Below, piece after piece: positions 2 to 28,311 of a stretch of 29,492 nucleotides of DNA. The notes under the pieces were generated by a model. The model saw only the letters and a program-made list of their open reading frames with translations. It had not been told where the DNA came from and ran no database searches. This DNA is from a bacterium (GTDB taxonomy: Bacteria; SZUA-182; DTGQ01; JAFGSM01). Both the position numbers and the translations under genes were made by a program. The DNA is taken from NCBI GenBank assembly GCA_049472355.1, contig JBLIRP010000048.1:1-29492 (forward strand), written 5' to 3'. Position 1 is the first letter of the stretch. Each line of letters opens with the position of its first letter.

Positions 2-763
2 ATTTACGGCACCACCGGTTATCCGCTCAGCTATCCCCTCGGGAGCATCTTCAGCGGATACTCTTCGTATAATCGGGGGTTGGGACTGTATGGAGGGCTC
101 TATGGCGGAGGGCTCTACGGAGGAATGTATGGCGGCCTGTATGGAGGATCGCTTTACGGTGGGCTGTATGGTGGATTGTACGGAGGCCTCTACGGCGGCG
201 GACTGTATGGTGGACTTGGTGGGCTGTACGGTGGATTGTATGGTGGATTATACGGCGGCCTCGGAGGGCTGTACGGCGGATTGTATGGCGGTGGCCTTTA
301 TGGAATGGGAAGCCTCCTCGGTATGGGCGGTCTAGGGCTCTATGGAGGGCTCCTTGGCGGAATCGGCCTGGGAGGTCTTGGCGGCGCCGTCAATCCACTC
401 TTTCTTGCCGCACAGGTAGGGACCTGGACAGGCACCTGGACCAACTTCGTGACCAGTGGACTGATGACCCTGAATATCGCCGAAGACCCGCTCACCGGAG
501 GGCTCTACGGCTATGCACAGCTTCTGGGTAACTTTTACCTGGACGCCCTGGTCGAGGTCACCGGCACGGTGTTGAACAGCCAGATATTCGTGGAAGGAAG
601 CGGAACCGGACTGGGCAACCAGAACTTCACGGTTGAACTGATCGGCACGCTCATCACCACATCCTCCATGACCGGCATCTACAACATGATCAACAACAGC
701 AGCGGCGGCACCATCACCGAACAGGGTACCTTCAAACTGGACCTGATCACACCGGTTATCTAA
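2..763 (+). CDS. Gly/Leu/Tyr-rich (GGLY-repeat) protein with a C-terminal beta-rich domain; 5'-truncated by the window edge
   Basis: The frame is open from position 2 (IYGTTGYPLSYPLGSIFSGYSSYNRG...), so the TTG at 80 is probably not the true start. About 17 [L/M]YG units are followed by a ~115-aa domain starting QVGTWTGTW. A terminator-like hairpin follows the stop. Confidence 0.8.
   Translation: MYGTTGYPLSYPLGSIFSGYSSYNRGLGLYGGLYGGGLYGGMYGGLYGGSLYGGLYGGLYGGLYGGGLYGGLGGLYGGLYGGLYGGLGGLYGGLYGGGLYGMGSLLGMGGLGLYGGLLGGIGLGGLGGAVNPLFLAAQVGTWTGTWTNFVTSGLMTLNIAEDPLTGGLYGYAQLLGNFYLDALVEVTGTVLNSQIFVEGSGTGLGNQNFTVELIGTLITTSSMTGIYNMINNSSGGTITEQGTFKLDLITPVI
83..385 (+). repeat. Coding low-complexity GGLY tandem repeat
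   Basis: (GG[G/S]?LY)n at protein level, with heavily varied synonymous codons (gga/ggg/ggc/ggt, ctc/ctg/ttg/tta, tat/tac). Confidence 0.9.
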
Positions 764-825: not shown

Positions 826-1656
826 TCAGCTCACCTTGAATAACTTACGACAGAGAAAGCCGAAGGCAATGGCAATGAGCAGGAAGGCCGCCAGCCAGTG
901 AAGATGCAGGCCGAAAAACCCCATATCAAAGGAGCGGGGCTTGTATCCTATATCGATGGCCTCTAACGGTGCATCAGTTGGTAGGAGCCTTTCCAGGGGA
1001 TTGAACATCCTCTCCACGAATCCCTCCCGGCCCAGATGCGGGGAAAACGGACCCACCGGGCTTCCAATGAGAACCTTTTTGATATACGTCTCTCCGCCGG
1101 TGCGGAAGGAGAGGTCGAACGATCCGGTCTTGGTACCGGTGATCTTCCATTCGATCTCACTGCTTCCGGGGGAATGAAAGGCAGGGGAGACCGCCTCGAA
1201 CCCGAAGGGAAGAAAAAGGGTCACCTCACGTTGCTGGTCACCGCCGGGGTTATCCGCCATGGTGGCCTTAACGGTAAAGGCCTCCCCCGGGGAAATGGGG
1301 CTGAAGCTGTAGCGGATGTTTATTTGTGAAAGTATGAGGAGGACAATGGCCACAATGGGAACAGCCGGTTTTATGGTCTTCAGGAAGTAAAAGAGGTTGT
1401 ATTTGAGGATCTCCTTTTGCGCGATGAGGATCTGCCGCATGTCATCCCGGTAGAGGATGATCTCGGCAAAACGAAGCTTTATCTGGTTCATGATCTCCTT
1501 GAGTGCCTTCTGGTCGGAGACATACTTGAAGATCACCACCGCCAGGAACCCGGTAAGGAGGGCAACAAAGGCAAGTCCGAAAAAGGGAGGAAGCTCCCTG
1601 AACGGCATGATCAGGAGATCGAAGAGCGCTCCGATAATTGAGAGAAAGGTTTCCAT
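826..1656 (-). CDS. Membrane protein, DUF106/EMC3/TMCO1-like (Oxa1 superfamily-like) with an inserted soluble beta domain
   Basis: N-terminal hydrophobic helices, then a charged helical segment (FKYVSDQKALKEIMNQIK), a TM starting PAVPIV, a ~140-aa beta-rich soluble region and a final TM HWLAAFLLIAIAFGFLCRKLF. RBS-like GAGGGA upstream. Confidence 0.55.
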   Translation of the reverse strand: METFLSIIGALFDLLIMPFRELPPFFGLAFVALLTGFLAVVIFKYVSDQKALKEIMNQIKLRFAEIILYRDDMRQILIAQKEILKYNLFYFLKTIKPAVPIVAIVLLILSQINIRYSFSPISPGEAFTVKATMADNPGGDQQREVTLFLPFGFEAVSPAFHSPGSSEIEWKITGTKTGSFDLSFRTGGETYIKKVLIGSPVGPFSPHLGREGFVERMFNPLERLLPTDAPLEAIDIGYKPRSFDMGFFGLHLHWLAAFLLIAIAFGFLCRKLFKVS

Positions 1657-1674
1657 GATTGTCCCTCTGCCTTG

Positions 1675-1872
1675 CTAAGAGATGTAGCCCAGTCCTTCCA
1701 GGCGTTTTTTTACCTCTTCCTCCGACTCGTCCCCCGAATCGAACTTGGAGATCTCACGCTCCAGGATATGGGTAATGAATTCCTCCACCGATGCATACCC
1801 GGATTTTGCGGCAAACGCTTCCGCCCGATCGAGCAATCCTTTTTCAAGCTTGATCTTCCTTCCACCGAACAT
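1675..1872 (-). CDS. Small ribbon-helix-helix/CopG-like protein with C-terminal EEEVKKRLEGLGYIS tail
   Basis: 65 aa with a GAGGAG RBS. Strand-helix-GY-S-helix pattern (KIKLEKGLLDRAEAFAAKSGYASVEEFITHIL). In operon position between the AlkP gene and the membrane protein gene. Confidence 0.75.
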   Translation of the reverse strand: MFGGRKIKLEKGLLDRAEAFAAKSGYASVEEFITHILEREISKFDSGDESEEEVKKRLEGLGYIS

Positions 1873-1956
1873 GTCTGTGTCTCCTCAAACCGATTAAGAA
1901 TAACACCAGCCTTCTGCTACCCTCCGTCACCTCTATTTGTTCCCCTATTACCTCTT

Positions 1957-3912
1957 TCAGAACAACGGCTTACCCACCATCTCAGGCAGGGGCTCAATAC
2001 CGAACTCCTTGAGGATGGTGGGGGCGCAATCAACCAGCGCCGGGTCATCCTTTTTGATCGGACGGCTGGTAACGAGTATCCCCGGCACGATGTCCGTATC
2101 GATGCAGTGATCACCGGTCCACTCGGTCGTATTGTCCCCAATGATTTCCCGCGGGGTCGCCCCCTGGGCGGTCCACCATGACGCCCGGTAGTTCCGGTTG
2201 TATCCGATGATCAGATCGGGGCTGTTTTTCACCCAGGCACCTGAATACACCGTGGCGGGATTGAACACCTGGGAGATTACCTGCTCGCCGTTTTCGGGAT
2301 CGCGGAATGCCTCGAGCTTGCGAATGAGCTCCTCCAGGAGGGCATCCTTATCGCCGGGATTCACGATGCCAAGCCCCTCTCTTCCCTTGAGGTTGATGTA
2401 CAGCCCATTGAGACCGAGTCCATAGGCCTTCGTTCGTTTCCAGTCGATATTCTCGAAAAATTCCCCGCCCCGCCCCTTGTACTCCTTGATGAATCCCAGG
2501 TATCCCTCCTTGTGGAGCCAGGTGTTGAGGTTGAAGTACCGGCGGAAGGGAACGAAGCCGTGGTCGGAGAGCACCATGATGAGGGTATCCTCATCCATGC
2601 GCTCCATGACCATTCCCAGGACCTGATCCATCTTCTGGTAGGTGGTGGGGATGACGTGGGCGTATTTCTCTGCCTTTTCCTTGTCAAAGGCAGGGTGCTG
2701 CGGATCGATGTGCTCCATGAACATATGCTGGATGGAGTCGGTGATCGAAAAGTAGCAGAAGAGCACCCCGTGGGTGAACCGATCGAGCTCCATCTCGAGC
2801 ATCCCGATCCGCTCCTTGAGTGGTATCTCGCTCTGGGCGAGAAATTCATCCTCGTTCAGCACCCCTCCGTTAAGGGCCCAGGTGTCTTCGGGCATTCCCT
2901 GGGTGTAGAAGAGGCCGATCTTTTCAGCGATTTCCCGGGCGTATTTTTCCGGGTGCGAGATAGGGAGCGAGGGATTGTAGGGATCGATATTCAGAGGGGT
3001 CACATAGAGCTGAAACTCGGGTCTCACCGATTTCAGGTAGAAGCGGCAGATGGCGGAGGTTGTGGTGAAGGCCATCATCTTGAACTCGATCCGCACCCAG
3101 TCGCTCCATCCTCCCTCGGAAAGGATGATCTCCCTGTCCTGGATCACGATCTTGGCTACGGGATTTTTGGGGTCCACGTGCACGGTGAAGGGTATCTCCG
3201 TTTTGGGTCGTTCCTCCTTAAAGGGGTTGGTCGGCCCAACAATCTTCGTAGTGATGACGTTCTCCTTTACCTCCACCGGATAGACCCTCCCGCTCGTCTG
3301 TTCCCCTTCGCGGCTGACCGCGGTGGAGTAGAAGAGAAAGGTGCCGTACGTCCCCAGCACATCCGGGGTCCCCATCCCCGAAAGGGAGCGTCCTCCCCCG
3401 GTGGCAGGGGGGAAATTCGAGGGCACCCGCAGGATGATGGCAGGCACGTCGCGGTCGTCGAGCACCTCCCAAAATGGCGTGCCCTTGCGGTATCCGACCA
3501 CCTCCACCTTGGATATGGGCGTCACCCATCCGAACAGCCTCAGCTTCCGCTTCGGCTCCTTGACCTCCGAGGTGGAAAGGTAGGGGAGGTAGGTATTCGG
3601 GTCCCGGGCGATGAAGTCGTAAATATTGTGCCCGCCCGGATTCAGCCCGGTGACAAAATTCGACCACGCCACGGGGCTCTGGGGAGGGACGCTGGTCCTG
3701 AGGGGCCTGAAGTCCCCCCGATCCGACAATGTCTTGAAATGGGGCAGCCGGCCCTCGTCAATCCATTTTTTGGTCAACTGAGGGTCCATGCCGTCAAAGC
3801 CCAGGATCACCACCTTTCGATTCGTCTTCCGGGCGGCGTGGGCATTCCAGGGCAGCAGCACGACGGCCAAAAGAATAAATACAAGAAGCATACGGTGTTG
3901 TGTGCGATTCAT
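1957..3912 (-). CDS. Alkaline phosphatase superfamily protein (type I phosphodiesterase/nucleotide pyrophosphatase-like), Sec signal peptide
   Basis: VILGFDG (metal Asp), PPQSPVAWSNFVTG (Ser nucleophile region), SDHGF and GDH motifs. The signal peptide ends AHA. AAGGA RBS. Confidence 0.9.
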   Translation of the reverse strand: MNRTQHRMLLVFILLAVVLLPWNAHAARKTNRKVVILGFDGMDPQLTKKWIDEGRLPHFKTLSDRGDFRPLRTSVPPQSPVAWSNFVTGLNPGGHNIYDFIARDPNTYLPYLSTSEVKEPKRKLRLFGWVTPISKVEVVGYRKGTPFWEVLDDRDVPAIILRVPSNFPPATGGGRSLSGMGTPDVLGTYGTFLFYSTAVSREGEQTSGRVYPVEVKENVITTKIVGPTNPFKEERPKTEIPFTVHVDPKNPVAKIVIQDREIILSEGGWSDWVRIEFKMMAFTTTSAICRFYLKSVRPEFQLYVTPLNIDPYNPSLPISHPEKYAREIAEKIGLFYTQGMPEDTWALNGGVLNEDEFLAQSEIPLKERIGMLEMELDRFTHGVLFCYFSITDSIQHMFMEHIDPQHPAFDKEKAEKYAHVIPTTYQKMDQVLGMVMERMDEDTLIMVLSDHGFVPFRRYFNLNTWLHKEGYLGFIKEYKGRGGEFFENIDWKRTKAYGLGLNGLYINLKGREGLGIVNPGDKDALLEELIRKLEAFRDPENGEQVISQVFNPATVYSGAWVKNSPDLIIGYNRNYRASWWTAQGATPREIIGDNTTEWTGDHCIDTDIVPGILVTSRPIKKDDPALVDCAPTILKEFGIEPLPEMVGKPLF

Positions 3913-3961
3913 TCCTTCATTACCTTTACGCGTTGAGTTCTTGTCATGCGAGGTATGTCCT

Positions 3962-6091
3962 TCATTCGAAGAGCGCCTTTCCCTCCATATAGGGAGGGAT
4001 CTTGAGACCGAACTCCCACAGGAGGGTCGGGCCGATATCGATGAGCCCCGGTCCTTCCTTGTCTATCGGCCTGCTGCAAAAGAAGACACCGGGGACATGT
4101 TCGGAATCGATGCAATGGTCGCCGCTCCAGCATCGGGTATTGTCCGTAAAGACCGAATCGGTGACGGTTCCGGTGGCAGCCTCCCATGAGGCACGGTAGC
4201 CGGGGCCGTACCCGATGATCAGCTCGGGCCCGTCCTGGCTATATGGACCATGGTTGACCGTGGTGCTGTCGTACACCGCAGAGATTGCCTTTTCGCCGCG
4301 TTCCTTGTCCTTGAGACCGGTGAGTTTTGTTATCAGTTCATTCTTAAGTGCATCGGCCTCCGCACCCGGAGAAACGATGCCCTGTGATTCCCTTCCTTTG
4401 AGATTCAGGAAGATGCCGCTCAGGCCCAGGGTAAACGCCCGTGTCCTTGTCCAGTCCACCCCCTGAAGCCACTCCTCCCTCCCTGATATCCCCTTCTTGA
4501 GGGCAAGGTATCCGTTCTTGTGAAGCCAGGTGTTCAGATTAACCCCCCGCTGGAAGGACTTGAATCCGTGGTCGGAGATCACCATCAGCAGGGTATTGTA
4601 ATCGAGCATATCCAGCACCTTCCCCACCATGGCATCCATCCGTTTATACAGGTCCTCCAGGACCCAGGCATAGGTAGTGGGGTCGAACCCCTTCATGGCG
4701 GGGTGGGCTTCTCCGTCCCTGTATCGCCAGAACATGTGCTGGATCCTGTCCGTGGTATCGAAAACGCAGCAGCATACCCCCCGCCGCAGCTTGGTGAGCT
4801 CGCTGAAAAACATCTGCTCGCGCTCCTCATGATTCAAATAGCACTGTTTGAGGAATGCGTCCTCGTCGATCACCCGCTCGTTGAGCGCCCAGGTGTCCTC
4901 GGCAAGGCCAAGGGTGGCATAGGGGCCGATGAGCCGGGAGAGGTAAGCCGAATAGATGAACGGCGAGGAGATGGGGAGGGCAGGGGACTCCGGATCGATG
5001 TTGATGGGGGAAAGGTAGAGCTTGATGTTGTCAGGGTCAAGGGACATGGGGAAGAAGCGTGCGATCCCGTAGGCCTTCCTTCCGAATCCAAGGCTGAAGG
5101 GAAGTTTTATCCAATTTGTATATGCACCCTGGCGAATCCTGTACCTTTCACCCTTTATCTCAAGGACAGGCCCTCCTTCCCCTGCAAGAATAAGGGAGAA
5201 AGGAAGCCTGGTCGCCTTCGGCCTTTTGAGAAAGGCGCTTTCCGGGCCGGGGATAAAGGAGGAAAAGATCCCGGTGCTCTCCTCTTTGAGGAATATGCGC
5301 GTCCCTCCGGTATGAGCCTGTGGATCGCCGTTTTCCGTGGTATAGTAGGTGAAGCTCCCCTGGGTGCCCCTCAGATCGGGCACGCACATGGCAGAGAGAA
5401 GCCTGCCGGTGAACCTCTCAGGGGGAAAGGTGACCGGCACGCGGATGATGGAGGAGGTGATCCCCGCCTCCCCCAGGAGTCTCCAGAAGGAATTACCCCG
5501 GCGGAGAAACCTGACATCCGGCTTGCCCAGGGGTATGCGGTATTTTCCCAGACTGAGTGCGCGGCGCGGTCTTCCGATATGCACGGAAGAAAGCCGCGGC
5601 AGATAGGTATTCGTATCCCTGGTGAAAAAATCATAAATCCCGTGCCGTGCGGGATTGGTACCTGTCGAAAAGGAGGACCAGGCCACAGGGGATATGGGAG
5701 GGCACGTGGTGCGCAGGGAAGAAAAGGTGCCCATCTCCATGAGCTTGCAGAAATTGGGAAGCAGTCCCTTTTGCATGAACTCCTTGGTCAATTCCGGGTC
5801 CATCCCGTCCAGCCCGATGACGATGGCCCGATGCGTCCTCACCGTACCCGGCCGCATCAGCCGCTGCTGTATCTTGCGTTTCTTGAACCGCGCCATCACC
5901 ATCCTGATCGGCCAGAAGAGGAAAAGGGCGAAGGCAAGCAGAAAGGTCACCAGGAATATAAGGAAGGAGCTGAAAAAGGCAATGCCGGCACCGGGACCAA
6001 TATAGGCCTGGGCAAGGGTTACAGGGCACAGGCAGCACAAGGCAGCCGCTGCAAGTATTGTAATGATGAATGGATATCGATTGTTGTTCAT
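3962..6091 (-). CDS. Alkaline phosphatase superfamily protein with signal peptide, AYIGPGAG motif and TM anchor (paralog of the neighbouring gene)
   Basis: IVIGLDG, PPISPVAWSSFSTG, SDHGF and SGDH motifs. The N-terminus reads LAQA-YIGPGAG-hydrophobic-RFKKRK. The start is uncertain (6091, 6112 or further upstream). Confidence 0.88.
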   Translation of the reverse strand: MNNNRYPFIITILAAAALCCLCPVTLAQAYIGPGAGIAFFSSFLIFLVTFLLAFALFLFWPIRMVMARFKKRKIQQRLMRPGTVRTHRAIVIGLDGMDPELTKEFMQKGLLPNFCKLMEMGTFSSLRTTCPPISPVAWSSFSTGTNPARHGIYDFFTRDTNTYLPRLSSVHIGRPRRALSLGKYRIPLGKPDVRFLRRGNSFWRLLGEAGITSSIIRVPVTFPPERFTGRLLSAMCVPDLRGTQGSFTYYTTENGDPQAHTGGTRIFLKEESTGIFSSFIPGPESAFLKRPKATRLPFSLILAGEGGPVLEIKGERYRIRQGAYTNWIKLPFSLGFGRKAYGIARFFPMSLDPDNIKLYLSPINIDPESPALPISSPFIYSAYLSRLIGPYATLGLAEDTWALNERVIDEDAFLKQCYLNHEEREQMFFSELTKLRRGVCCCVFDTTDRIQHMFWRYRDGEAHPAMKGFDPTTYAWVLEDLYKRMDAMVGKVLDMLDYNTLLMVISDHGFKSFQRGVNLNTWLHKNGYLALKKGISGREEWLQGVDWTRTRAFTLGLSGIFLNLKGRESQGIVSPGAEADALKNELITKLTGLKDKERGEKAISAVYDSTTVNHGPYSQDGPELIIGYGPGYRASWEAATGTVTDSVFTDNTRCWSGDHCIDSEHVPGVFFCSRPIDKEGPGLIDIGPTLLWEFGLKIPPYMEGKALFE

Positions 6092-6350
6092 GGTGTTAAA
6101 TCGTTTCTGCATGTATATTGTATTATCGGATGCAATCTTTAAACCCTCCATATGTATACCATATCTTCCCACAAATCAAATCATAATTATAGCACATCAG
6201 CATATCCGTGTGAATTTCAAAAATGAAATCCCTTCAGACATTGAAAATCTCATGGAAATTCACTATAGTTTGAGCGAGATAGGGTAGTACGGGGGGAAGG
6301 GGGAGGCCTTTTGTTTCGGCTCCCTTTCCCACAGGATGAGGACACATGAA

Positions 6351-7077: not shown

Positions 7078-8436
7078 CTAATTCCTGAGACTGCTGATCG
7101 GGGCGGGTATGCGTCCCCCGCGCGCGATGAACGCCGTGCTCGAAAACCTGCTCACCGCCATGATGGGTGCCTTTCCCAGCAGCCCTCCGAACTCGGCGAT
7201 TTCTCCTACCTTCTTCCCGATGACCGGTATGATGCGCACGGCGGAGGTCTTGTTGTTCACCACGCCGATAGCAGCCTCGTCCGCGATAACGGCGGCGATG
7301 GTCTCGGCGGGGGTGTCGCCGGGGACCGCGATCATGTCGAGCCCCACCGAACATACGCAGGTCATTGCCTCGAGCTTCTCGATGGTGAGGGAGCCCTTGG
7401 CCACCGCTTCCATCATGCCCTCGTCCTCGCTCACCGGGATGAAGGCGCCGCTCAATCCCCCCACGTGCGAGGAGGCCATGGCACCCCCCTTCTTCACCGC
7501 ATCGTTCAGGAGCGCAAGGGCGGCAGTGGTGCCCGGGGCCCCGCACGCCTCGATCCCCATCTCCTCGAGGATGCGCGCCACGCTGTCCCCAATGGCGGGG
7601 GTCGGCGCAAGGGAGATGTCCACAATCCCGAAGGGCACGTTGAGCCGTTTCGCAGCCTCGTGCGCAACGAGCTGTCCGAGCCTGGTGATCTTGAATGCCG
7701 TTTTCTTTATGGTCTCGGCCAGGGTGTCGAAGTTCGCCCCCTTGAGCTTTTCGATTGCCGCCAACACCACCCCGGGCCCGCTGATCCCGACATTGACGGT
7801 GCACTCCGGCTCGCCTGCACCGTGGAAGGCCCCCGCCATAAAGGGGTTGTCCTCCACCGCATTGGCGAACACCACCAGCTTCGCACATCCCACGCTGTCC
7901 CTCTCCCTGGTGAGATGGGCGGTCTCGGTGATGATCTCCCCCATGTGCCGTACCGCGTCCATGTTGATGCCGGTCCTGGTGGTGGCTACATTCACGGATG
8001 CGCATACCCGTTCGGTTACTGACAGGGCCTCGGGTATGGAGGTGATGAGCTTCATCTCCCCCTTGGTATACCCCTTGTGCACCAATGCCGAGAATCCCCC
8101 GATGAAGTTCACCCCCACTGCCTTGGCCGCGGTATCCATGGTCTTCGCAAAGGCTACGTAATCCTCGTCATCGCTCGATTCTGCGACTATGGACATCGGG
8201 GTAACGGAGATCCTCTTGTTGATAATGGGAATGCCGTATTCCAGTGCAATATCGTCACCCACCCGCACCAGGTTCTCCGCATAGTAGGTAATCTTGTCGT
8301 AGATCCTCCTGCGTGCCTCATCCCCGTTCGAATCAGCACAGTCCTTCAAGGAGATCCCCATGGTTATGGTCCTGATGTCCAGATTTTCCGCCTCGATCAT
8401 GCGGATCGTTTCGATTATCTCACTCGGATTGATCAT
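7078..8436 (-). CDS. UPF0210/DUF711 (PFL-like) family protein
   Basis: Characteristic [47 protein letters not shown] and [15 protein letters not shown] motifs, ending [13 protein letters not shown]. Confidence 0.93.
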
Positions 8437-8513
8437 AATGACCCCTTATTCATTCTCTGCCCGTACGCTCCGTTGCAATAATTCCCTGTATGCGTCATTC
8501 ACCTTGCCCGGCC

Positions 8514-8783
8514 TCAGACATGATGCATGGCCTTGAAGACCTCTTCCCGCTGAATCTTGATCTGCAGCCCGATGATCTTCCCCTTATCCGACAGCCTGTT
8601 ACTGAGCTCCGCAAACGATGGCTTCATCTTCGAAAGATCAACGAGCATGATCATGGTGAAATAGTCCTGGAGTATGGTCTGGCTTATATCCAGGATATTG
8701 ACCATGTTCTCCGCGAGCACCGCACTCACCTGGGCAATGATCCCTATCTTGTCCTTTCCGATGACGGTCACGATTGCCTTCAT
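8514..8783 (-). CDS. ACT domain protein (UPF0237), usual partner of UPF0210
   Basis: MKAIVTVIGKDKIGIIAQVS...NILDISQTI...FTMIM...QREEVFKAMHHV, with an AGGAGAGG RBS. Confidence 0.93.
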   Translation of the reverse strand: MKAIVTVIGKDKIGIIAQVSAVLAENMVNILDISQTILQDYFTMIMLVDLSKMKPSFAELSNRLSDKGKIIGLQIKIQREEVFKAMHHV

Positions 8784-8937
8784 ATTTCCCTCTCCTTTGA
8801 TGATTCCGGTTGAGAGTAAAATCCCGATATAAAAAATACACCACAACAATGACGACTATTGTAGCATTTTGCTTTCTTATTTCAACATGTTAATGTATTA
8901 TGTCACACAAGCACGGTATAATATCTTGAAATTCTTA

Positions 8938-9597: not shown

Positions 9598-10104
9598 TCA
9601 GCCTCCTCTCATTGCGGACAATATTGCGGAAATGACCTCCTCGTGGTTTTTGCCGCTGCAGTCGACATCAATCTCTGCATATCTCCGGTAGAGGGGGACC
9701 CTTTCATTGTATAACTCGCTCAGGCATTGGCCTGGTCTGCGCACAACTCCTCGATTCGCAAAGTTCTTCAACCGCTTCTCAATCAAGTCGAGAGAAAGAT
9801 CGAGATGGATGATGGTCCCGCTCGAGCCCAGATGTTCCATTGCCCTCCTGCTGTAGACGACGCTCCCTCCGGTGGCGATGACGGTTTTCGTGCAGGCAAG
9901 TGACAGCACCGTACGTTCCTCGATGCAAAGGAATGCCTCCAGTCCCTTACTATCAATGATCTCCTGAAGGCTTCGGCCTTCCTGCACCTGGATGAGCACA
10001 TCGGTATCAATGAAACGCATCGACATTACCTTTGCAAGGATAACACCGATGGTGCTCTTGCCTGAGCCCGGCATCCCGATAAGGACGATATTCCCTTCAC
10101 TCAT
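9598..10104 (-). CDS. aroK: Shikimate kinase
   Basis: NIVLIGMPGSGKSTIG P-loop, FIDTD, VIATGGSVV and ER-PLY motifs. Confidence 0.92.
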   Translation of the reverse strand: MSEGNIVLIGMPGSGKSTIGVILAKVMSMRFIDTDVLIQVQEGRSLQEIIDSKGLEAFLCIEERTVLSLACTKTVIATGGSVVYSRRAMEHLGSSGTIIHLDLSLDLIEKRLKNFANRGVVRRPGQCLSELYNERVPLYRRYAEIDVDCSGKNHEEVISAILSAMRGG

Positions 10105-10261
10105 TGCGTCCGGCACGGCTGCGACCTTTCGTATTGAAGAAGCTGAAATAGGTCTGCAAGCAGGGGATGTCACCACGCTGTGACATGCCCACACTCGTTG
10201 ATCTACACAGTCTATTTCAATTGATCGGCGTTGAGTTACACTTTACGCTAACTTCTTTCCC

Positions 10262-10959: not shown

Positions 10960-11739
10960 TCAAATAAGACCCGCCACAATGGGAGGCAGCGGCAACACGA
11001 CAGGCACAAAGGGAACCACTGCCGGGGCCACCGTGGTTACCACCGGAGCAGCCACGACCGTAGGTGCTGCAGGGGCCACCGGCGTCACTGCGGGAGCAAC
11101 CACAGGGGCAACTGCAGGGGCCACAACAGGGGCTGCTCCGGGGGCGATAAAGCTTCCGGTGAACACATAATTGGCCGGTACAAGTTCACCTGCGGTAAGG
11201 AGATTGGGGTAAATCCCATAAAGGGATTGATATGCCTGGTTAACAACGGGCAGCATGATATTGAGCCATTGAGCGGGATCGAAACTGATAAGATTTGCGT
11301 AATTGGCCGGCAATGGTATGGGTGCCGGAGTAATGGCGGTAGCGGCGAGCTGCAGCAGGGAGGGGGGGGGCCATACCCTGAAGGAATACGCGGGATTCAC
11401 AATGCCCTGGGCCGGGTCGAAATAGATCAATTCATTGAGCCCGCCGCCCACGGGAACATAGTTGTACAGAAGATGAAAAAAGGGCAGACGCGGGTCCCAC
11501 ACGAGCGCCGGCTGTACCGGCAGGAAGGTGGTTTTCGTGATCTCCGAAACCAGCGGGATGGGCAGTCCGGTGACGGGGTCCGGCGGGGATAACACGGGTG
11601 ACCACAGGGGCCACAGCACATTATAAGGCGGCAATGATTGCCATAACTGAGCAGAACAGGTATCAGGAACAATCCAGAGGGCGACAATTATAAGTAAACT
11701 GCATAAAATCACCATATATTCAATATATTTTGCCTTCAT
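10960..11739 (-). CDS. Secreted Pro-rich protein with an Ala/Pro/Val low-complexity C-terminal tail
   Basis: GGAGA RBS before ATG 11739. The signal peptide ends CSA, followed by QLWQSLPPYNVLWPLWSP. The tail is AAPVVAPAVAPVV... It has its own consensus promoter. Confidence 0.85.
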   Translation of the reverse strand: MKAKYIEYMVILCSLLIIVALWIVPDTCSAQLWQSLPPYNVLWPLWSPVLSPPDPVTGLPIPLVSEITKTTFLPVQPALVWDPRLPFFHLLYNYVPVGGGLNELIYFDPAQGIVNPAYSFRVWPPPSLLQLAATAITPAPIPLPANYANLISFDPAQWLNIMLPVVNQAYQSLYGIYPNLLTAGELVPANYVFTGSFIAPGAAPVVAPAVAPVVAPAVTPVAPAAPTVVAAPVVTTVAPAVVPFVPVVLPLPPIVAGLI

Positions 11740-11911
11740 GGTCTTCTCGTCTCCACGGTATGACAATAAGCTTTTTTATATTATGGGCCTCTTCCAATTG
11801 AATACAATCCTCTTTTCCCTCCCTCTTCTAAAGTTACGTGTATACTCAGCGGGTGTCTTGGAAATGGGAAATTCATGGTGTGGCCTTGAAGCAATTTCGA
11901 GATCTATCAAA

Positions 11912-11986: not shown

Positions 11987-14900
11987 CTATGACCTGAAAT
12001 CGATGATCAGAATGACGCGTGCCGCATTAGGATCCTCGTCGATTTGGGTACTGCCCTGATGGGGATGGTGGCATAAGAGGCATGCATCATCCTGGTCCTG
12101 GAAATGGGCATCGATATGGCAGTCGTTGCAGAAGTCCTCGCGTTTGCCCGGATACCCGGCGTTCCCGCCGCTGCTGCGCAGGTAGGCGTCTCCCTGCTGG
12201 AGGTGCGGGTTGTGACAGGAGCCGCAGTAGAAGCCGTCATGGGGATCGGGTTGGGGCTTCGGTCCTGTGGGGATGACATCGTGATCGGATGAATCGCGGG
12301 GGAAGGTGTTGGGATCGTAGTAGGCCACACCCTCGATATCCGCCCAGTTTCGCATCACATGGTCCTCCAGGTAATCGCCCGGTATCTCTCCTCCGGGGAG
12401 GGCCTTTTTGAAGACCGACTCCGCGCCGGTCTTGGCGATGCCCGCGAGGTTGTGGCAGGTGAAGCAGAGCTGGCGGAAGCCCTGGAAGGGGCCGGCCCCG
12501 TAACCGGGCCGTGACCAGAGCTTTGGTCCGACTGCGCCGTGAGGGGTATGGCAGGCATTGCAGATCCCCCATTCGCTCCCGGAGAGTCCACCGCCTCCAT
12601 GGTCCCCTGAAGGGAAGTCGTATTCGGTCTCACCGAATGGATGGCAGGCCTTGCACAGCTCACTTCCAGGGCTGTGGGTGCCGCGCACGACGAAATTATC
12701 CTTGACCAGGAGGTAGCCATGGTCTTGATAAAGATCCGTACCGTTCTCTCCCTGCCATGAGGTTACCGCGGCATGGGTGTTGTGACAGGTGGTGCAGACC
12801 ATAGCGCCATATTCACCTTGAAGCGATCGACCGGTATTGGGATCGTAGGGATAGGTAATTCCCCCGGGCTTCCCGCTCCCTCCTTGGGAAAAGAGGGGGA
12901 GGGCATCGTTATAGGTATCCACGAAACTCGGCGCAGTGGGCGCACCTTGAATCGGATCAGGATTTGGGCCTCTGCCAATGGGATGGCTGCGGGATACAAA
13001 TATCCCATCCTTGTTGTGACACGCTTCACATAATCCATCAGGCTGATAGGCGGAGGGGTGGTTCCCCAGATAGGGTGGGGTGTGGTTGTCGTGCACATCA
13101 TGACAGGTGCCGCAATACATATGACCAGACTGCGTACCATAATCGTCGGTTATAACGAGATCCGTACCGTCTGAAACGAAAAACCCCTCGCCGATCATTC
13201 CCGGGTCGGCGTTCAAGCCGAAGGGGTGGGTAAAATGGACACATGGATTGAGGAGTGAGCCTGCATCGCCGATGCTACCAACCATATCCTGTTTTCCGTG
13301 ACAGCCGAAGCATAGATCCTCGTAGTCGCACGCATCGGTGTCATCCTCTTTATCTCCCCATGAAAGGTTGAAAGAGGGCTCCCTCATGAGGGCATCGACA
13401 TCCGGACGTATGCCAATATCCGGTATGGGGTCGGTCTGGCGTTCTTCGCCATCATGCATGAAATGACAGAACATGCAGCCACCCCTTCCGTTCGGAGACT
13501 CGTCAGCGGAAATCAGATGCCTTCCCCTGAGGGTAGAGGTCACCTTGTCAGTATGACAGGTGATGCAGAAATCGGGCTTATCCCTCTCATCTCCTTCATT
13601 CAATGCCCATCGCAGAAACGAGTTGGCCAGGCTTCTTGCCTCTGCATCCGGTCCGGAAAAGGGTCCGGAGCCATGCTGACCGTCATGGCAGGAGGTACAG
13701 GTCAGTTGCCCATTTTTATTGAGCAACTCGAGCGGTGTGCCCGGCGCCCTCACAAACATGCCGCTGACGACCTTTGTCGAATCATGAATACTCGCTTGGG
13801 TTCCCATGGGATGGTGTTCCTTCCTGACAAGAAACTCATCCCCCGATATGGAAGGTCTTCCTTCCCTCCGTGCATCCCGCTCATTATGACATCCGTAGCA
13901 TAATTGTGATGGACATTGTTCATTGGGATCATCCGTTATTTCGGGCACATTCGGGAGTGCAACCAGGGAGGGATACGGCTCCGTATCCGGAAGGATTCCG
14001 CTATGAGGTGAATGGCACGTTATGCAGCTTTCATTGGTGCCGGTGTGTGGGCTGGAATGGCAGTCCTCACAGGCCCCCCGATCCAGCGCCCTTACCAGGA
14101 GCCTTCCATGGTCAAGGAGATCGTCTCCATCGGCTCCCCCATCCCAGTTTGTTTGTGCCGTATGGACACTGTGGCAGGTTTGGCAAACCACGCTACCCTC
14201 TGCCGAGTCGAATGATATATCCCCATCGGTCAGGCCCCCTATTCCCCCGCTGTAGCCACTGTAATACAAGACAGGGACGCCTCCTTCCAGTGCCTTATCC
14301 AATGAATGATTCTGGGTGCCAAGATTCTCGTGCTGTGCAGTATGGCAGCTATAGCACAATAGTGATCCATAATTGTCAACGCGAAGATATGCTGATCGGT
14401 GTTCCCTGTAATCCTCCTGAATCTCCGGTGAGAACTGATTCTTGCGATGGACATCATGACAGCTCCCGCACCAAATCCTCCCCTGTTCAATACCATAATC
14501 GTTTATCACGCCTGTTCCCTTTCCATCCGAGATGCCGGGCATATTTTGGAGGGTCGCTGAAGGGAGTGCATTAAATCGGTGCGAAAAGAATCCATCCCTG
14601 ATGTTATCCAGGAGCAATGCATTTTCTTCGTTTGACGTCGATTCCTCCCCCACGATATCCGGTCTGGAATGGCATCCATAGCAGGCGTCCTCATAGTCCC
14701 TGGCGTCCGTATCGAGTATGGTATCGGACCAGGCCATGTTAGCCGGTGACACGCGCATGATAACGTCGACCGAGACCGACGAGTTACGCTGAGTCGCCTC
14801 TTCTTCACGGGTCTGATACAGGGCATCGGGATCACCCGGGGAATTGTGAATGGAATGGCAAAAGAGGCATTGATTATAAGGGGCAATCTTGTTGTGCCCT

Positions 14901-17900
14901 TCTCCGCGCGGTCCCAAGTCGGCGCATTGCTTGTCTGAATGGCATGCCGTACAAAAAGTTCCTGCATTGGCTGGATCGAATTCCGTAACAATGCGGGGAT
15001 TCAGGTAATGATCATTGGTCCCATCATGCACGGTATGACACGAGGAACAGTACAATTCCCCGGCAGGTGACAAGGGCCCCGCCGGTGTAGGTTGATGTCC
15101 CAAGGTCGAGGCATTTGCTCCCAGCCCCATCGGGTGGTGCTCCAAAGGATAGGATACATCGTCACCAGCCAACGGCGCGCCGATTGCGCCGGGAAATCCC
15201 GATCCCTTTCTGTGGCATCCGTAGCAGGCTGCAGCATATTCCGAGGAATCGGAGAAACCCGGGCAATTCGGTATCGCGGTGAATTGTATATGCGGCGTAA
15301 TGAGGATTGAAGAACCCATTTCTAATGCATTGTGGGGATGGTGGCACTCGAAGCACCCATGCACAGCCCCGTGACCATGGGCATCCCCTGAGACGAGGCC
15401 TTGATGGCACTGTGCACAGAAGGTGTATTCCTTATCCGAGGCATTTTCAATCAATCCGGGTGCCCTCTGCCTCAGGTAATCCCCGCCGCCTTTATCATCA
15501 ACAGGTGCATAGGGATTGCAGTGAGGGTCATGGCAGGAACCGCACGAGAATCCATCTCCTCCTTCGGTTTCCTTGAGCGGAAAAGGGGACCAATCGTTTC
15601 TCGTGACACTCCCGCCATTGATGAATGCGCTGCTGCCCATTACGTGATCATGGGTTATATCGCCCTCTGCCTCAAAAATCCCGAACCGATCCTTCGCCCC
15701 GTAGAGGCCGGTCCTGTGACAGAAGGCACAGAGTCGCTTGGTGCCGGTGAATGGGCCGGTTGTCGTGCGCGCCCATATCCTTTCATCAGCAGCATGATGG
15801 GGCATGTGACACGCATCACAGGGATTCGAAGAGAGAATGTGCGGGCCGTTCAGACAGACTTTATGACATGCGAAACAGAGTGCATTCTGAATATTGCTGC
15901 GTCTCAGGTAAAAAGAGGGATAGATGCTTCCCCTGGATTCCGTCATCTGAGAAACTGTGTCATCATCTCGTAATCGCATATACGCCTCACCATGTGGCTG
16001 GTGACACGTTGCACAGGTGATGGTATTGTTTGCATCCAGGTGGAGATCTTCGGGGATTTCCACCGCTTCAGAAGGCGCGATATCAACCGGATGCGAACTC
16101 CCCAGTGATTCTTCCGAATGACATGCACGACAGAGGCTTACCACATCCTCCCTGAATCGAAGGTCACGGTAGTCAGTAATCCCAAATATGGGCTCACCAA
16201 TGTGACAGTCCTGACATCGATCGGCATCATACATGAAGGCGTGGCCACCCTCCGGTATATCCCCGATCAATATGAGCCTGGCACGTCTCAATTCCTCGGA
16301 TGTCATACCTTCAACGGCTCGTGTGTCACCCCTGTGGGGATGATGACATTCCTGACAGTTTTCGCAGTCGAGGTGCGTGTTCCCTGTCTCCCAAGGGTCG
16401 TGGCACTGGGTGCAGAACCGTGTTCGATTTCCCGGCTCACCCACATCACCTGTTTTTGTCCTCAAGTAGTCACCATTCGTTTCATTTGCAGGGGGCTGCG
16501 TATGCGGATCATGACAGCTCCCGCAATAGAGGCCTGCACCACCTGTGTCCCACTCCGAAGGATGACCTGGAACGCAGTCCGTATCATTCGGATTCAGAGG
16601 AAAGGTACAGGCATCATAAGTTCCCAATGCACTATCGGCATTAGTGTCCGCAGATCCGTGCATAACGTGGGATTCAAATACAAAGCCGAAAACCGTGGCA
16701 ATGCCGGATGCCACGACTGGTGAATCGGGAGCATCGGGATTCAGCCCTTGGGTGAATGTGCCGTCATGGCAACTGTTGCACAACTGTCTCACCCCTCCGA
16801 ATTTGTTCAAAGGCCTTCTTGCCCATAGTGTTTTCCCCCTTGCTCCATGGGGGAGGTGACAATTCGCGCACACCCCCTGGGCATGCTGAATATTATGAGG
16901 TCCTGTCATTATCCGTGGATGACAATCCCGGCACATATCGCTTCCCTGATCGGTCATCCTGTTTTCCCTGACGGTCAACCGACCGTGTCCCTGATCCGCC
17001 TTTCCCGGAACCCTGCCGTCGAATGAGGTGGCGCTCGCATGAATGTTGTGACAGGTGAGGCATATGACCGTACCCTCGCCATTTTGGACGTCACCGGTAA
17101 TGCCCCCCGGCTCCCCATCTCCTCCCTGAAAGTAGAGGGCATCCCACACCGGTTCAGTTGAAGGCGGATTGGGGTCCTTATTCATCGGATGCCCAAATTG
17201 TAAGAACCTGCCCGAGCCATGATTCTCATCATGGCACTCCTCACAGAATCCATTGTCCAATGCAAGGTTTATGTCATCCTCTGCGTGATTGAGATATGGC
17301 CGGATCATTCCATTGTGCACAGTGTGACAGGTTCCACAATACATACGCCCTGCGTCCGTACCGTAATCATTTAGGGTCATAAGACCAGGGCCATCCGAAA
17401 GGGGATAGACGCCTCCCGGCTTCACCTTTAAGCGCGGCGGGCTATTGGGGTCCGGGACGCAGGTAAAGCGATGAGTAAAGTAGGCATTGGGCTGCAATAG
17501 CGATCCTTGAGAACCAAATCCGCCCACTATTGTCGGATCTCCGTGGCACCCATAGCACATGTCCTCATAGTCGTACGGATCGCTGTCTATGACACCCCTG
17601 CAGCTATCGTCAGCACCGATGTCCCCTACCACCCAAATCAGTGGGATTGCCGGCTGCCTCATGAGCGCATCCACATCAGCCCGGATCCCCTGGTCAGGCA
17701 AAAGGGTGAGCGTGGACTGGCGCTCGATGCCGTCATGGATGAAATGGCAGAACATGCAGCCGCCCCTTCCGTTGGGGGAATCATTCGGAGAGAGCCAATG
17801 TTTTCCGTCATTGTGTGATTCAGTCTTGTCCGGGTGACAGGCACCACAGAACGCGGGATCGTCCATTTTATCCGCGCCGTTGGCAAATTCCCAGCGCAGA

Positions 17901-20900
17901 TGATGGTTTGCCTTTGCCTTGTATGGGTCATCCGGATATGCCCCGGCACCGTGCATCCCGTCATGGCAGGATGTGCAGGTCACTTCCCCTGCCGGATTTG
18001 CGAAGGTGGCACCGGCAGGCATGGTTGCCCTGAGGCTCGTTACTGTGGCCTGGGTTCCCATGGGGTGATGCTCCTTACGCATTACCCCAGAATCATCTCC
18101 GTAGAGCACCGGTATGCCCATTGACGAGCCTGTCCCGGGATTGTGACATCCGTAACAGGTTCTGGACAAGGGTATATCATCATCACTGTCGTTGATTGTC
18201 GCAACATTGGGAAGTGCCCTGAAGGAAACACCCTGCCGATCGGTCCCGTCACAATCCTGATCGATGGTATCACCGGGGATATCCACGGCATCGGGATGCA
18301 CCAACGGGTCAGTGTCATCACAATCCTCAGGCCCGCACTGCGCGCCGCCAATGAAAAAACCGTCTCCGTCCGCGTCACGACACACCAGGATAGTGCCGAT
18401 GACCTGCACAGAGACATCCCTATTGGTCGCCGCAATGACCACCGTTCCGCTGGACAGGGCGGTAATCTTCCCGTCCGTGCTCACCGTGGCATTATTCGGA
18501 TCTGATGAGGAATAGGCCGTTCCGGATGAGCCCTTTGTTACATCACGCGTCGTACCGTCTGAATATCTTCCGGTCACCTTCAATTGTAACGTGCTTCCAG
18601 CCCCGGTGATGCTGAATGAAGAGGGCTCAACTACAAGCGATCGCAGTGTCGGGGAGGGCTTCGGTACCGGATGGAATGGCGGAAAATAGAGTGCCGAGGG
18701 ATAAACCTGGTTGTAGGGGAGAAAATTACCATACGGACCCGGTTGAGAAGGCCTATTGATGACGGCATTCCACATGGCGAATTGTGGTTTATACCAAGTC
18801 GATGCGAGAGAAGGATATATGTAAGATATGAATGTGGGCGTTTTGTACATTGTCTGATAGGAAGGGTACAGAAACGTCCCCAGATATGATGGCAAAGAAA
18901 ATGCTGTGGAGGACATCCCCAGTAAGGGTCCTTGAAATATGAGGGGATAGGTAAGGGGATATCGTAAGGGAAATAATCCCCAGGATTGTTGCCTGGGAAC
19001 ATTCCTCACCGTGATCCTAATGGTTTCAGAATCGAACCGTGGAGGCAGTCCATTGTCGGTAACAAAAAAGGTTATTTCACGATCCCCCGACTGGTCGAAG
19101 CCCGGTTTCCAGGAAAACTCACCTGTTTCCTGATTGAACCGGGCGCCGTATGGAAGCGGAGTGGCGGAGTAGGTCAAGAGATCACCATCAGGATCGGCGG
19201 CATGCACCGCAAAACTTAGTGATTCGCCCTCCCTCACGATCTTGTCGCCAATGAGCGCCAATACAGGATCGTTATTGGTGATGCCTATGATATCCACCAT
19301 GCCGTTGACGTGTCGATAAAAACCGGGATTTCCATCGTAGATCCCGTTATGTGGATGACACGTGGAGCAGTCCGACGAACAGAATGAATGATCCGTACCC
19401 TTGTCATCGGGTGGGGTGTGATGACAATTGTCACAGTAAATGAAATGGCCGTCCGCATCCATACAGGTGAGGGGGTCCCTGCAGAATTGTGATTGCTCCG
19501 ACCAGGTTATGTGCCCCGCGAACACCCCTTTTCCGTTGCTGTGGCAGTATAGATTCATACATGCCTTTGTGATTGCATCATATTCACCGAGGGGATTCAG
19601 AAATAAATCGAACCCGACAGGGGTATAGTTATTTAGATCGAATAGATAGTCGAGGTTTGGATCGCTATAGGGCTGACCAGAAGGGTCGATATGGCACCTG
19701 AGGCAGGGGTAATTATACCGCGCATGTGCCCTATGCGGATCCTGACCCAGATCCCCGTCAGGGAAAGGTGGAGGGGGCGTGCCGTGCCCTTTGCCGAAAA
19801 CCGTGGCAGAGAGATCGAACCCTTCAGCATCCGTGAATGTTTCGATATCGATGCGCTCGATCCCATGACATCGACAGGTGGGTGCAAATGCCTTTGAATT
19901 GAAGATCGAGAGGGGGCTTTCAAGCTCGAGCGCCGATTCCGGCTCGGGTCCCGGATCATGGACGTGGCAGGCGGTGCAGTCTGTGCCCCGGTAGTCGACG
20001 GTGCAGGTATCCGAATCCGGACACACCATCCCATCCGGGTTAAAGTAGTGCCGGGAACCGTTTGAGTGCTGAAATCCGTCAAGCCCACCCGGCCGTGACC
20101 AGAGACTCCTCGCCTTTGTCTGATGGCATACCTCGCATATATCCGTTGTTCCGGAGGGGATCGTCATGTCATTCTGCGAAGAGTCCTGTTCGCGGATGTC
20201 CTGTTTAAGCGGATCGAAAAGGTCAACCACCCAGACATCCTCATTTGGATCGGGATAGGGGCTGCCAAGTGCATACGGAGGTGGATAGGGGCTGCAGGGG
20301 GGTGACGTGAACTGGCTGAAATGGCAGTCGTTGCAAGGTTGTTTGGGGATGCTTCCGCGTATCATAAAGGCATTCGCGTTTCCCTGCTTGTCGCCCGAGC
20401 CGTGCGGATCATGGCAGACAACGCATTGTGATTGCCTCGGCGGCTGTACCGGCCTTTCGCGTCCGATCGATGGGCTTTTATATACGAAATGGGAGTATTT
20501 CGTGGGGTGACATTCCCTGCATTCCCGCCATTGGTGATGGGGAGAGGCGCTCACCTCATTCGGATCCCCCCATCGTTCATCGCGGTAATCGATGGTGTCG
20601 AGATGTCCGTTATACTTCCCTAAGGGTATTCCGTGAGGGTATTCAAATGACCCGGCGCATATCTTCCTTTTTGTCGTTTCATTCGACCAGTGACATTCCC
20701 AGCAGAAATTCTTCTTACCGTCATTCGGGTCAAGGTCCTCATCATGAAGGGTACAATCCATATCCATGGAAATCCCGCTGCTATTCATGGCACCCCTGTT
20801 CGGGTATCCTCCATGCAATGTCTTTGGGGAAGGATACCCCGTATCAAGGGTAGCCCCTGCATAGTAGTTCTCAGCCTTGACCCCGTGGCCGTTCTTTGAC

Positions 20901-26500: not shown

Positions 26501-26680
26501 CTCGATCTCCTCGGGACTTGCATTGGTATAGGAGGTGCTGATACTGAGGGTAGGGTAGGTGATGTCGGGCATCAGGTCAATGGGCAGGCGGGTCAGGGCG
26601 ACGACTCCCAGGAGGATGACGATCAGGGTGACCATAATCGTGAAGATGGGGCGATCGATTGCACTGCGGGCGATTCTCAT
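23561..26680 (-). CDS. RND efflux permease (AcrB/AcrD/AcrF, HAE1/SwrC-like)
   Basis: 1039 aa with [54 protein letters not shown] and [10 protein letters not shown] motifs. Confidence 0.96.
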
Positions 26681-26691
26681 GGACGTATCCC

Positions 26692-27867: not shown

Positions 27868-28311
27868 AAACGCTCCTGCAACTTCCTTATATGCATCCTT
27901 ATATACTTAATATACTTACACGTCGAAATATGCGTCGAACGAAATGCCCCGACAAACGGTCATATTGTAGTGGTATTTTTTCCAATACGCAAGAAATTTA
28001 TGATTTATTTCCCCTTTGGGGCACCGCTCAATAAATGTCTGCATTTTTTTGCTCATTTTTCTAATTATAGTTATTATTTTTCACTATATGCATTTTTTTT
28101 CACCTGTTTCGATTGCCCATCGGTTTCTTTACGGTGCATTCGCAAGTATTAATCATTTTTAAACAGCTAATTAGCACATCTTGTATCGGGTGTTGAACAG
28201 GGTAGGGGGCATCAAGATATGGAATAAATTATGCTTAAATATTGTAAACCGAAATTACATTATGTTTCAACAATTCATTATGTGCCGCCATTACACGGGG
28301 GGAGGTTCCTA

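Follow-up and report, generated by a model that had tools for sequence, protein, structure and literature searches.

Four co-oriented genes on the minus strand of contig JBLIRP010000048.1 (assembly GCA_049472355.1, a bacterium of GTDB lineage SZUA-182) form a real, widespread and tightly conserved cassette, which encodes two paralogous enzymes of the AlkP superfamily (A and B), a 65-aa protein (C) and a membrane protein of the Oxa1 superfamily (D). The cassette occupies positions 826 to 6091 of the 29,492-nt stretch that we analysed (the window). It is very probably linked to sulfate, and it is apparently an undescribed membrane system, with a composition unlike that of any known family and a plausible mechanism in which a sulfuryl group would be handed outward across the membrane.

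A conserved four-gene cassette

The four genes encode AlkP-A (3962..6091, minus strand, as are all cassette features given below; 709 aa from the ATG at 6091, an uncertain start since a second in-frame ATG lies 7 codons upstream), AlkP-B (1957..3912; 651 aa), C (1675..1872) and D (826..1656; 276 aa), with gaps of 49 nt (A-B), 84 nt (B-C) and 18 nt (C-D). An earlier reading made from the letters alone (the sequence-only reading) had drawn the same four closely spaced open reading frames and proposed that their products relay a phospho or sulfo group across the membrane. It had seen C and D but left them unidentified, missing the Oxa1-superfamily character of D and the LGY tail of C. The divergent plsC that it reported is present beside A (PlsC-family acyltransferase match); the lipid link at which, in that reading, this gene might hint was rejected as incidental, plsC being found only in the closest relatives (G009 and G011) and in 1 of 80 metagenome loci.

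Co-conservation of the four genes, on which the sequence-only reading had made its proposal depend, is what we observed. Within the window's phylum (20 genomes examined), D was matched in nine genomes. Of eight relatives, six carry A-B-C-D in this order, two of these being interrupted by unrelated genes; in a seventh, B-C-D stand where the contig begins, and in the eighth A-B is separate from C-D. Metagenome loci were picked by alignment to A only (the best 80 of 622 matches) and fall into 22 clusters at 70% A identity. All four genes are found in 64 of these 80 loci, as ABCD in 21 and as BCDA in 43, and in 15 of the 16 incomplete loci the contig stops too soon on the side in question; at the level of clusters, 14 of 22 contain a complete cassette. 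Contexts of D without A were sampled within the phylum, and a D-only scan of genome contigs gave 1 locus only. No plasmid match to a D homolog was found when one was sought. Neither a description of the cassette nor a relevant paper on COG3379, a periplasmic sulfotransferase relay or YidC-sulfatase loci was found in the literature searched (most subscription papers and supplements lay outside it).

A sigma70-like match upstream of A (6186..6214; 11 of 12 positions plus TG) is a consensus match only, such sites showing no excess over shuffled sequences (4 versus 3.1). RNA-library contigs 90-99% alike span parts of all four genes and the A-B, B-C and C-D junctions; they come mainly from one study without a silent-DNA control and are not counted as evidence of expression. 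In two relatives a two-gene unit lies between B and C (L014:9734-10469; L016:6495-7206), consisting of a nucleotidyltransferase gene and a second gene that we take to be HEPN-like.

Enzymes A and B and the membrane protein D

Both A and B match PF01663, and they share 44% identity over 628 columns. The metal ligands and the Ser nucleophile (D95, S134, D448, H452, D507, H508 and H659 in A numbering) are kept in 70 of 70 A and 70 of 70 B sequences, which bears out the earlier statement that both paralogs retain these motifs; the family match, two-metal ligands and Ser/Thr nucleophile of an AlkP enzyme of nucleotide pyrophosphatase/phosphodiesterase (NPP) type are thus all found in each. The nucleophile position is Ser134 in A (5690..5692, the serine of PPISPVAW) and Ser79 in B; both have the motif S-P-V-A-W, without the formylglycine motif C/S-x-P-x-R of type I sulfatases. 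Fixed active-site differences separate A from B (e.g. I133/Q, V443/Y and D445/S). Within the superfamily, the AlphaFold2 (AF2) model of A (pLDDT 91.8) groups with the NPP branch at 9-13% identity, the closest folds being NPP, alkaline phosphatases and phosphonoacetate hydrolase. A phmmer search of B against PDB gave no match, and the B profile gave weak NPP matches only. The LtaS/EptA family models matched neither enzyme, and none of the four proteins has a Pfam or NCBIfam match to MBOAT or SGNH. The Cys content of A (8.3 versus 2.8) is at most a hint.

The N-terminus of A consists of a signal ending in AQA, then YIGPGAG (residues 30-36; 5984..6004), one hydrophobic segment and the basic run RFKKRK (residues 68-73; 5873..5890). 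YIGPGAG is the predicted mature N-terminus after AxA cleavage, and its tyrosine is a candidate outer carrier. Y30, G32, P33, G34, A35 and G36 are invariant, and the YIGPGAG-type start does not vary in alignments of 118 and 144 rows. Of 79 metagenome copies, 78 show A-x-A, cleavage, Y-[IVA]-G-P-G-A-G, a transmembrane (TM) helix and a basic run, the remaining copy being cut by a contig end. Among 112 homologs scored, the 22 residues after the TM helix hold a mean of 7.0 K/R and the 10 residues from the Tyr hold 0, and the spacing from Tyr to WP is fixed at 30 residues in all 112. Residues 33-78 form one continuous helix in the AF2 model, and therefore a single membrane crossing is predicted. B has a single N-terminal hydrophobic segment ending in AHA and no further TM helix, and its homologs carry varied Sec-, lipoprotein- or Tat-like export signals (read by eye). 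Both N-termini are as the sequence-only reading had given them: signal, second TM helix and RFKKRK in A, a cleavable signal only in B.

D is a bacterial Ylp1/DUF106 relative (Oxa1 superfamily) with an added Ig-like domain. By itself it matches PF01956 under the cut-off (E 0.0078), and 22 of 150 family members match it at E<=0.05. The profile of 150 D sequences reaches the archaeal insertase Ylp1/MJ0480 (E 1.5e-8), and a trace of TM3 is matched as well. D has three TM helices. In its AF2 model (pLDDT 95.4) a helix at the N-terminus precedes TM1, a long helical hairpin separates TM1 from TM2, and the beta domain, an Ig-like insert, sits between TM2 and TM3. The best structural match (VIA-align, 48,161 chains) is 7tut_8 (Z 11.3, rmsd 3.4, 136 aligned), a multipass-translocon chain of 177 residues, which we take to be TMCO1; YidC 3wo7 gives Z 7.7, rmsd 6.6 and 150 aligned, and a Z under 13 is weak for helical proteins. 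The Foldseek rows listed for D are mainly beta domains, and its beta domain resembles Ig folds. Atlas neighbours of D are bacterial clusters (Aminicenantota, Planctomycetota, Acidobacteriota), with Woesearchaeota DUF106 at TM-scores of 0.71-0.74. A profile from 20 homologs finds 2,703 representatives at E<=0.001, of which the weaker matches may include archaeal DUF106, and 698 clusters (50% identity) at E<=1e-30, and the system is therefore common in soils and sediments. Conserved polar residues of D are S32, S47, Q49, Y90, Q111 and S262. The available parts of earlier reports treat DUF106/Ylp1 as archaeal and eukaryotic, with a cytosolic coiled coil (PMC5868721, PMC8887752, 10.1101/2020.12.20.422553); no bacterial Ylp1-type protein was found described in the literature searched as above, and a 2026 insertion review makes no mention of Ylp1 or DUF106.

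A complex was modelled from A (residues 29-709), C (residues 31-65), D and two zinc ions, with D as the scored partner; no contact of C, which was not scored, is listed. The A-D score is 0.75 against 0.00 for the best control, on a scale where the mark is reached by 116 of 157 solved pairs and 2 of 215 mismatched ones, counts that hold only roughly here. The runs share at least 34% of contacts, with a pLDDT of at least 74 for D. Confident contacts join the tip of the D coiled coil (residues 57-75; 1432..1488), the predicted docking site, to the catalytic domain of A (residues 210-230, 377-387 and 434-437), and because this coiled coil is cytosolic, the A catalytic domain is placed on the cytosolic side. 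The docking patch is hydrophobic at 5.5 of 8 positions in A versus 1.8 in B, where 4.7 of 8 are charged; Tyr383 of the patch is found in 70 of 70 A sequences and is Glu in 54 of 70 B sequences. Such conservation in A independently agrees with the modelled contact. A cytoplasmic catalytic domain in A and a periplasmic one in B, hence opposite membrane faces, are accordingly what both the models and the export signals of B homologs predict, in line with the sequence-only reading, and the partner interaction on which that reading also leaned is predicted between A and D. No solved complex of the A-D kind was found. The similar distances of A and D (r 0.96) are explained by common descent and carry no weight here.

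In five genomes that are more distant and lack a D match (G015-G019; L110-L114), a single enzyme has the form YIDPG-TM-TM-AlkP, and its second TM helix would return the catalytic domain to the outside. The active site of these fused enzymes is hybrid (Q133 as in B, V443 and D445 as in A). Stops and a frameshift disrupt the G018 copy; none of the four intact ones has the docking patch, and they form a third clade. These enzymes appear to tie the outer Tyr to an outside enzyme and D to A. A strict search for free-standing YxDPG-type peptides gave 0 in the loci, a void test as it missed fused forms too.

Protein C, the LGY tail and the sulfate context

C is ribbon-helix-helix (RHH)-like, has no signal and ends in KRLEGLGYIS, with an invariant Tyr63. 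The tail LxGLGY is invariant in 67 aligned homologs and closes 65 of 65 C homologs of the metagenome loci. C itself has no Pfam match; its Atlas neighbours are named CopG family (0.95-0.96) and have no common Pfam family, the nearest PF01402 cluster lies at 0.89 with a 27% share, and a C paralog on contig C9 matches PF01402. We regard C as a candidate cytoplasmic carrier or regulator. In this phylum an acidic helix with the LGY tail likewise closes CysA and CysC. It closes the catalytic domain of exported sulfatase-fold enzymes too, in 31 of the 35 that are full-length, among them 6 of 6 encoded by the window's own genome; A and B have no such tail. Of 85 solved relatives of one tailed sulfatase-fold protein, the three whose alignments were inspected have no LGY tail, though others may, and no description of the tail was found in the literature searched.

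In 4 of 6 regions read from relatives, a sat-cysC-AlkP operon begins with a second gene of the RHH-LGY kind. On contig C9 of G000 (L002:9327-11043), a short AlkP gene without a signal follows the gene of a 119-aa RHH protein that carries two LGY tails, and a Na/sulfate symporter gene is divergent; as relatives have RHH-sat-cysC-AlkP there, a deletion seems to have joined the RHH gene to the tail of CysC. The LGY tail is also found at the end of the sulfate ABC ATPase CysA in G000 and of similar genes in two relatives (L109:4977-6077, L123:7623-8765 and L125:6484-6999).

A sulfate-type neighbour is found in 53 of the 80 loci, namely sulfatase-fold genes in 32 (often with tetratricopeptide repeats, TPRs), P-loop sulfotransferases of ~200 aa in 19, short signal-less AlkP paralogs in 12, sat/cysN/cysC in 8 and a CysQ-like phosphatase, under the family cut-off, in 7 (the neighbour scan covered 40 and 16 chosen representatives). 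Genes of the type that handle 3'-phosphoadenosine 5'-phosphosulfate (PAPS) accompany 11 of 22 A clusters. The window's own genome encodes a sulfotransferase, sat, cysC, sulfate transporters and 7 sulfatase-fold genes, scattered on other contigs. The neighbouring sulfatase-fold proteins have mostly T-x-P/x-S-H or degenerate nucleophiles, and none has C/S-x-P-x-R; as FGE-domain genes are present in the genome (3 matches), the absence of formylglycine is read from motifs and not from loss of FGE. In 3 related loci, D forms one protein with an exported sulfatase-fold enzyme, a fusion that is on record from Bryobacteraceae (12 contigs). This gene context favours sulfo over phospho as the group, a choice that the sequence-only reading had left undecided.

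In L041, L042 and L052 (also L035 and L099), a shortened D without its first helix is fused to or abuts an exported sulfatase-fold TPR enzyme, and the A signal peptide is almost absent in these loci; 5 of the 80 metagenome loci have such an A. TPR membrane proteins, some with a weak PMT_2 match, adjoin tailed sulfatase-fold genes (L104:3313-5325; L031, L034, L040), and presumably are TMTC-like glycosyltransferases. Genome-wide there is a large expansion of small proteins, by appearance secreted, which either are rich in Tyr and Gly (GLYGG repeats) or start with PPYNxLWPLWSP: 90 frames passed a loose filter, most of them of that kind, and two lie in the window (2..763, plus strand; 10960..11766, minus strand). 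Several flank exported sulfatase-fold genes, and the proteins are candidate sulfate acceptors.

The remainder of the window contains, on the minus strand, an ACT-domain and DUF711 pair (7078..8849), a shikimate/homoserine kinase-like gene (9598..10194), a 3,257-aa multiheme cytochrome c with Ig-like domains (11987..21760) and an RND efflux trio of adaptor, AcrB-type permease and TolC-type channel (21966..27867). A chagasin (I42) domain protein is encoded on the plus strand (28231..29106).

Proposed relay, rival readings and known systems

We propose, giving it a little under an even chance, that the cassette relays a sulfuryl group from cytoplasmic PAPS outward to exported sulfatase-fold transferases via tyrosine carriers. 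Sat and CysC would make PAPS, from which the small P-loop sulfotransferase or a short tail-less AlkP enzyme would sulfate the Tyr of C's LGY tail. A, held at the membrane by D and docked on its coiled coil, would take the sulfuryl group on Ser134 and hand it to a membrane carrier, maybe a lipid-like phenol or a Tyr such as D-Tyr90, which would cross via a presumed groove of D so that the group ends outside on N-terminal Tyr30 of A. B would then take it on Ser79 and load the LGY Tyr of periplasmic Thr-type sulfatase-fold enzymes, which in turn would sulfate envelope glycans or secreted proteins. We infer every chemical step, and A-D binding and the topology come from models. Insertase grooves can scramble lipids or pass polar lipid heads, according to the accessible part of 10.1101/2023.09.01.555937. 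The wider claim, that the Oxa1/Ylp1 fold has been repurposed as a sulfuryl-relay membrane channel and that a large family of misannotated, LGY-tailed 'sulfatases' in fact transfers sulfate to envelope glycans and to tyrosine-rich proteins that are secreted, is offered tentatively, as possible but on balance doubtful.

Several points weigh against the outward relay. Its weakest steps are the membrane crossing and the transfer of a sulfuryl group at a two-zinc site. As to the crossing, passage from Ser134 to the far face has no explanation, and an invariant catalytic residue is missing from D. Two-zinc NPP sites normally attack phosphorus and are poor at sulfuryl transfer; because those of the nearest folds do so, A and B could cleave PAPS or adenosine 5'-phosphosulfate (APS) at phosphorus instead. 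Chance alone makes plain LxxLGY frequent (63 of 11,141 open frames), and only the longer form with its acidic helix is selective. As to conservation, 42 of the 80 loci form one cluster of close kin, and the cassette can split: A-B and C-D are apart in G014, and L066, the one real exception among the incomplete loci, has D-A with no B-C in ~1 kb upstream. No sulfate-type neighbour lies in the DNA examined at 27 of 80 loci. The query for the small sulfotransferase matched 8 of 20 genomes and none of the cassette-bearing G002, G003 and G014 (96-97% complete), of which G002 and G003 have the RHH-sat-cysC-AlkP operon. Conversely, G007, G008 and G010 (93%, 63% and 88% complete) have 8-12 sulfatase-fold genes and no A or D match, and only an A fragment was found in G005 (91% complete).

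The alternative that survives best, though we think it unlikely, is that no group crosses and D is a dedicated insertase, chaperone or scaffold for A, perhaps for exported sulfatase-fold enzymes too, with A and B doing sulfate-ester or PAPS chemistry separately, each on its own side. D keeps the Oxa1 core and matches Ylp1, the start of A (signal, short loop, TM helix) is like simple YidC substrates as described in the available text of PMC5868721, and the near-signal-less A of five loci would need N-tail insertion. However, the genome encodes a separate YidC elsewhere, the best-supported contacts of D are with the folded catalytic domain of A and not its TM helix, and the invariant Tyr30, its fixed spacing to WP and the retention of B and C would go unexplained.

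Less likely still is a transmembrane sensor-regulator, in which B would sense or cleave a sulfate ester outside, with the signal relayed by A-D; C, the RHH protein, would control sulfate genes, and A would attach a group to its LGY Tyr or take one off. C is RHH-like, with homologs named CopG/Arc/MetJ regulators in the sources, a related RHH gene heads sat-cysC operons (available part of PMC8268124), and a tail on CysA and CysC would suit a regulatory tag. Yet the tail is commonest on exported enzymes, out of reach of transcriptional control, and C sits inside the cassette rather than at its head and has no Pfam RHH match; full catalytic sites in both A and B also argue against it.

We find it improbable that A and B are NPP-type phosphodiesterases or nucleotide-sulfate hydrolases (acting on PAPS, APS, 3'-phosphoadenosine 5'-phosphate (PAP) or nucleotide sugars) or phospho-transferases, so that the sulfate link would reflect by-product recycling and clean-up. 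Their fold and metal site are NPP-like, and the related archaeal PYCH_17550 is speculated in the accessible text of PMC8268124 to degrade pyrophosphate; simple hydrolases would not need D, C or an invariant outer Tyr, nor the fixed differences between A and B. Highly improbable is an inward relay, in which exported sulfatase-fold enzymes strip environmental esters and B, D and A import the group and regenerate PAPS or APS: its anatomy would be the same and sulfatase-fold genes are the commonest neighbours, but nearby sat, cysC/cysN and CysQ-like genes would make PAPS and remove PAP, which favours the outward direction, and the formylglycine motif found in hydrolytic sulfatases is missing from the exported enzymes.

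If the outward sulfuryl relay is true, bacteria sulfate molecules outside the cytoplasm without exporting PAPS, an Oxa1-superfamily protein has a job other than membrane-protein biogenesis, and many formylglycine-less 'sulfatases' (Acidobacteriota, Planctomycetota, Aminicenantota, candidate phyla) would be reassigned from degradation to synthesis. Should the relay prove wrong, an enzyme-bound protein of Ylp1 type in bacteria would still be unexpected.

Among known systems, LtaS, EptA and OpgB transfer groups via a covalent Ser/Thr and have a multi-TM domain fused to a sulfatase-like domain, whereas A has one TM helix after its signal and B has none. Caprazamycin synthesis reportedly includes a two-step sulfation by an aryl sulfotransferase through an aryl-sulfate shuttle; the fold of that enzyme is absent from A and B. 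NPP, PafA/SPAP and phosphonoacetate hydrolase (PF01663) have the fold and two-metal ligand set in common with A and B, which differ by their 9-13% identity, large inserts, S-P-V-A-W motif and existence as a paralog pair with fixed differences. For AlkP-superfamily sulfotransferases there is genetic precedent in the glycan sulfation by Agl30/Agl31 of Halobacterium salinarum; these belong to the sulfatase-like branch, are reported as membrane-bound and cytosolic, and have no known relay partners in the available part of the report (PMC11980604). In Pyrococcus yayanosii, the cluster pych_17520-17560 (copG-sat-pApase-type I phosphodiesterase-cysC) ties an RHH protein and a PF01663-type enzyme to PAPS synthesis (PMC8268124), and an RHH-sat-cysC-AlkP operon of this type also occurs in the window's phylum; the accessible text describes no membrane-anchored and exported AlkP pair and no Oxa1-fold gene there. 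D shares the Oxa1 superfamily (PF01956) with Ylp1 (MJ0480, PDB 5C8J), TMCO1/EMC3/Get1 and YidC, but is bacterial, has an Ig-like insert, is encoded with enzymes rather than as a housekeeping protein, and has a coiled coil predicted to bind a folded enzyme. The closest likeness to the proposed relay, in logic only, is with Dlt (DltB-DltX-DltD) and PatA-PatB, which, as set out in the available part of PMC12148441, have an inside donor, a membrane step, an invariant terminal Tyr as carrier (in DltX and PatA) and an outside Ser transferase to which that Tyr hands the acyl group. The cassette has neither MBOAT nor SGNH; it would use AlkP folds and an Oxa1 fold, with an enzyme on each face, and the group it handles is probably sulfuryl.

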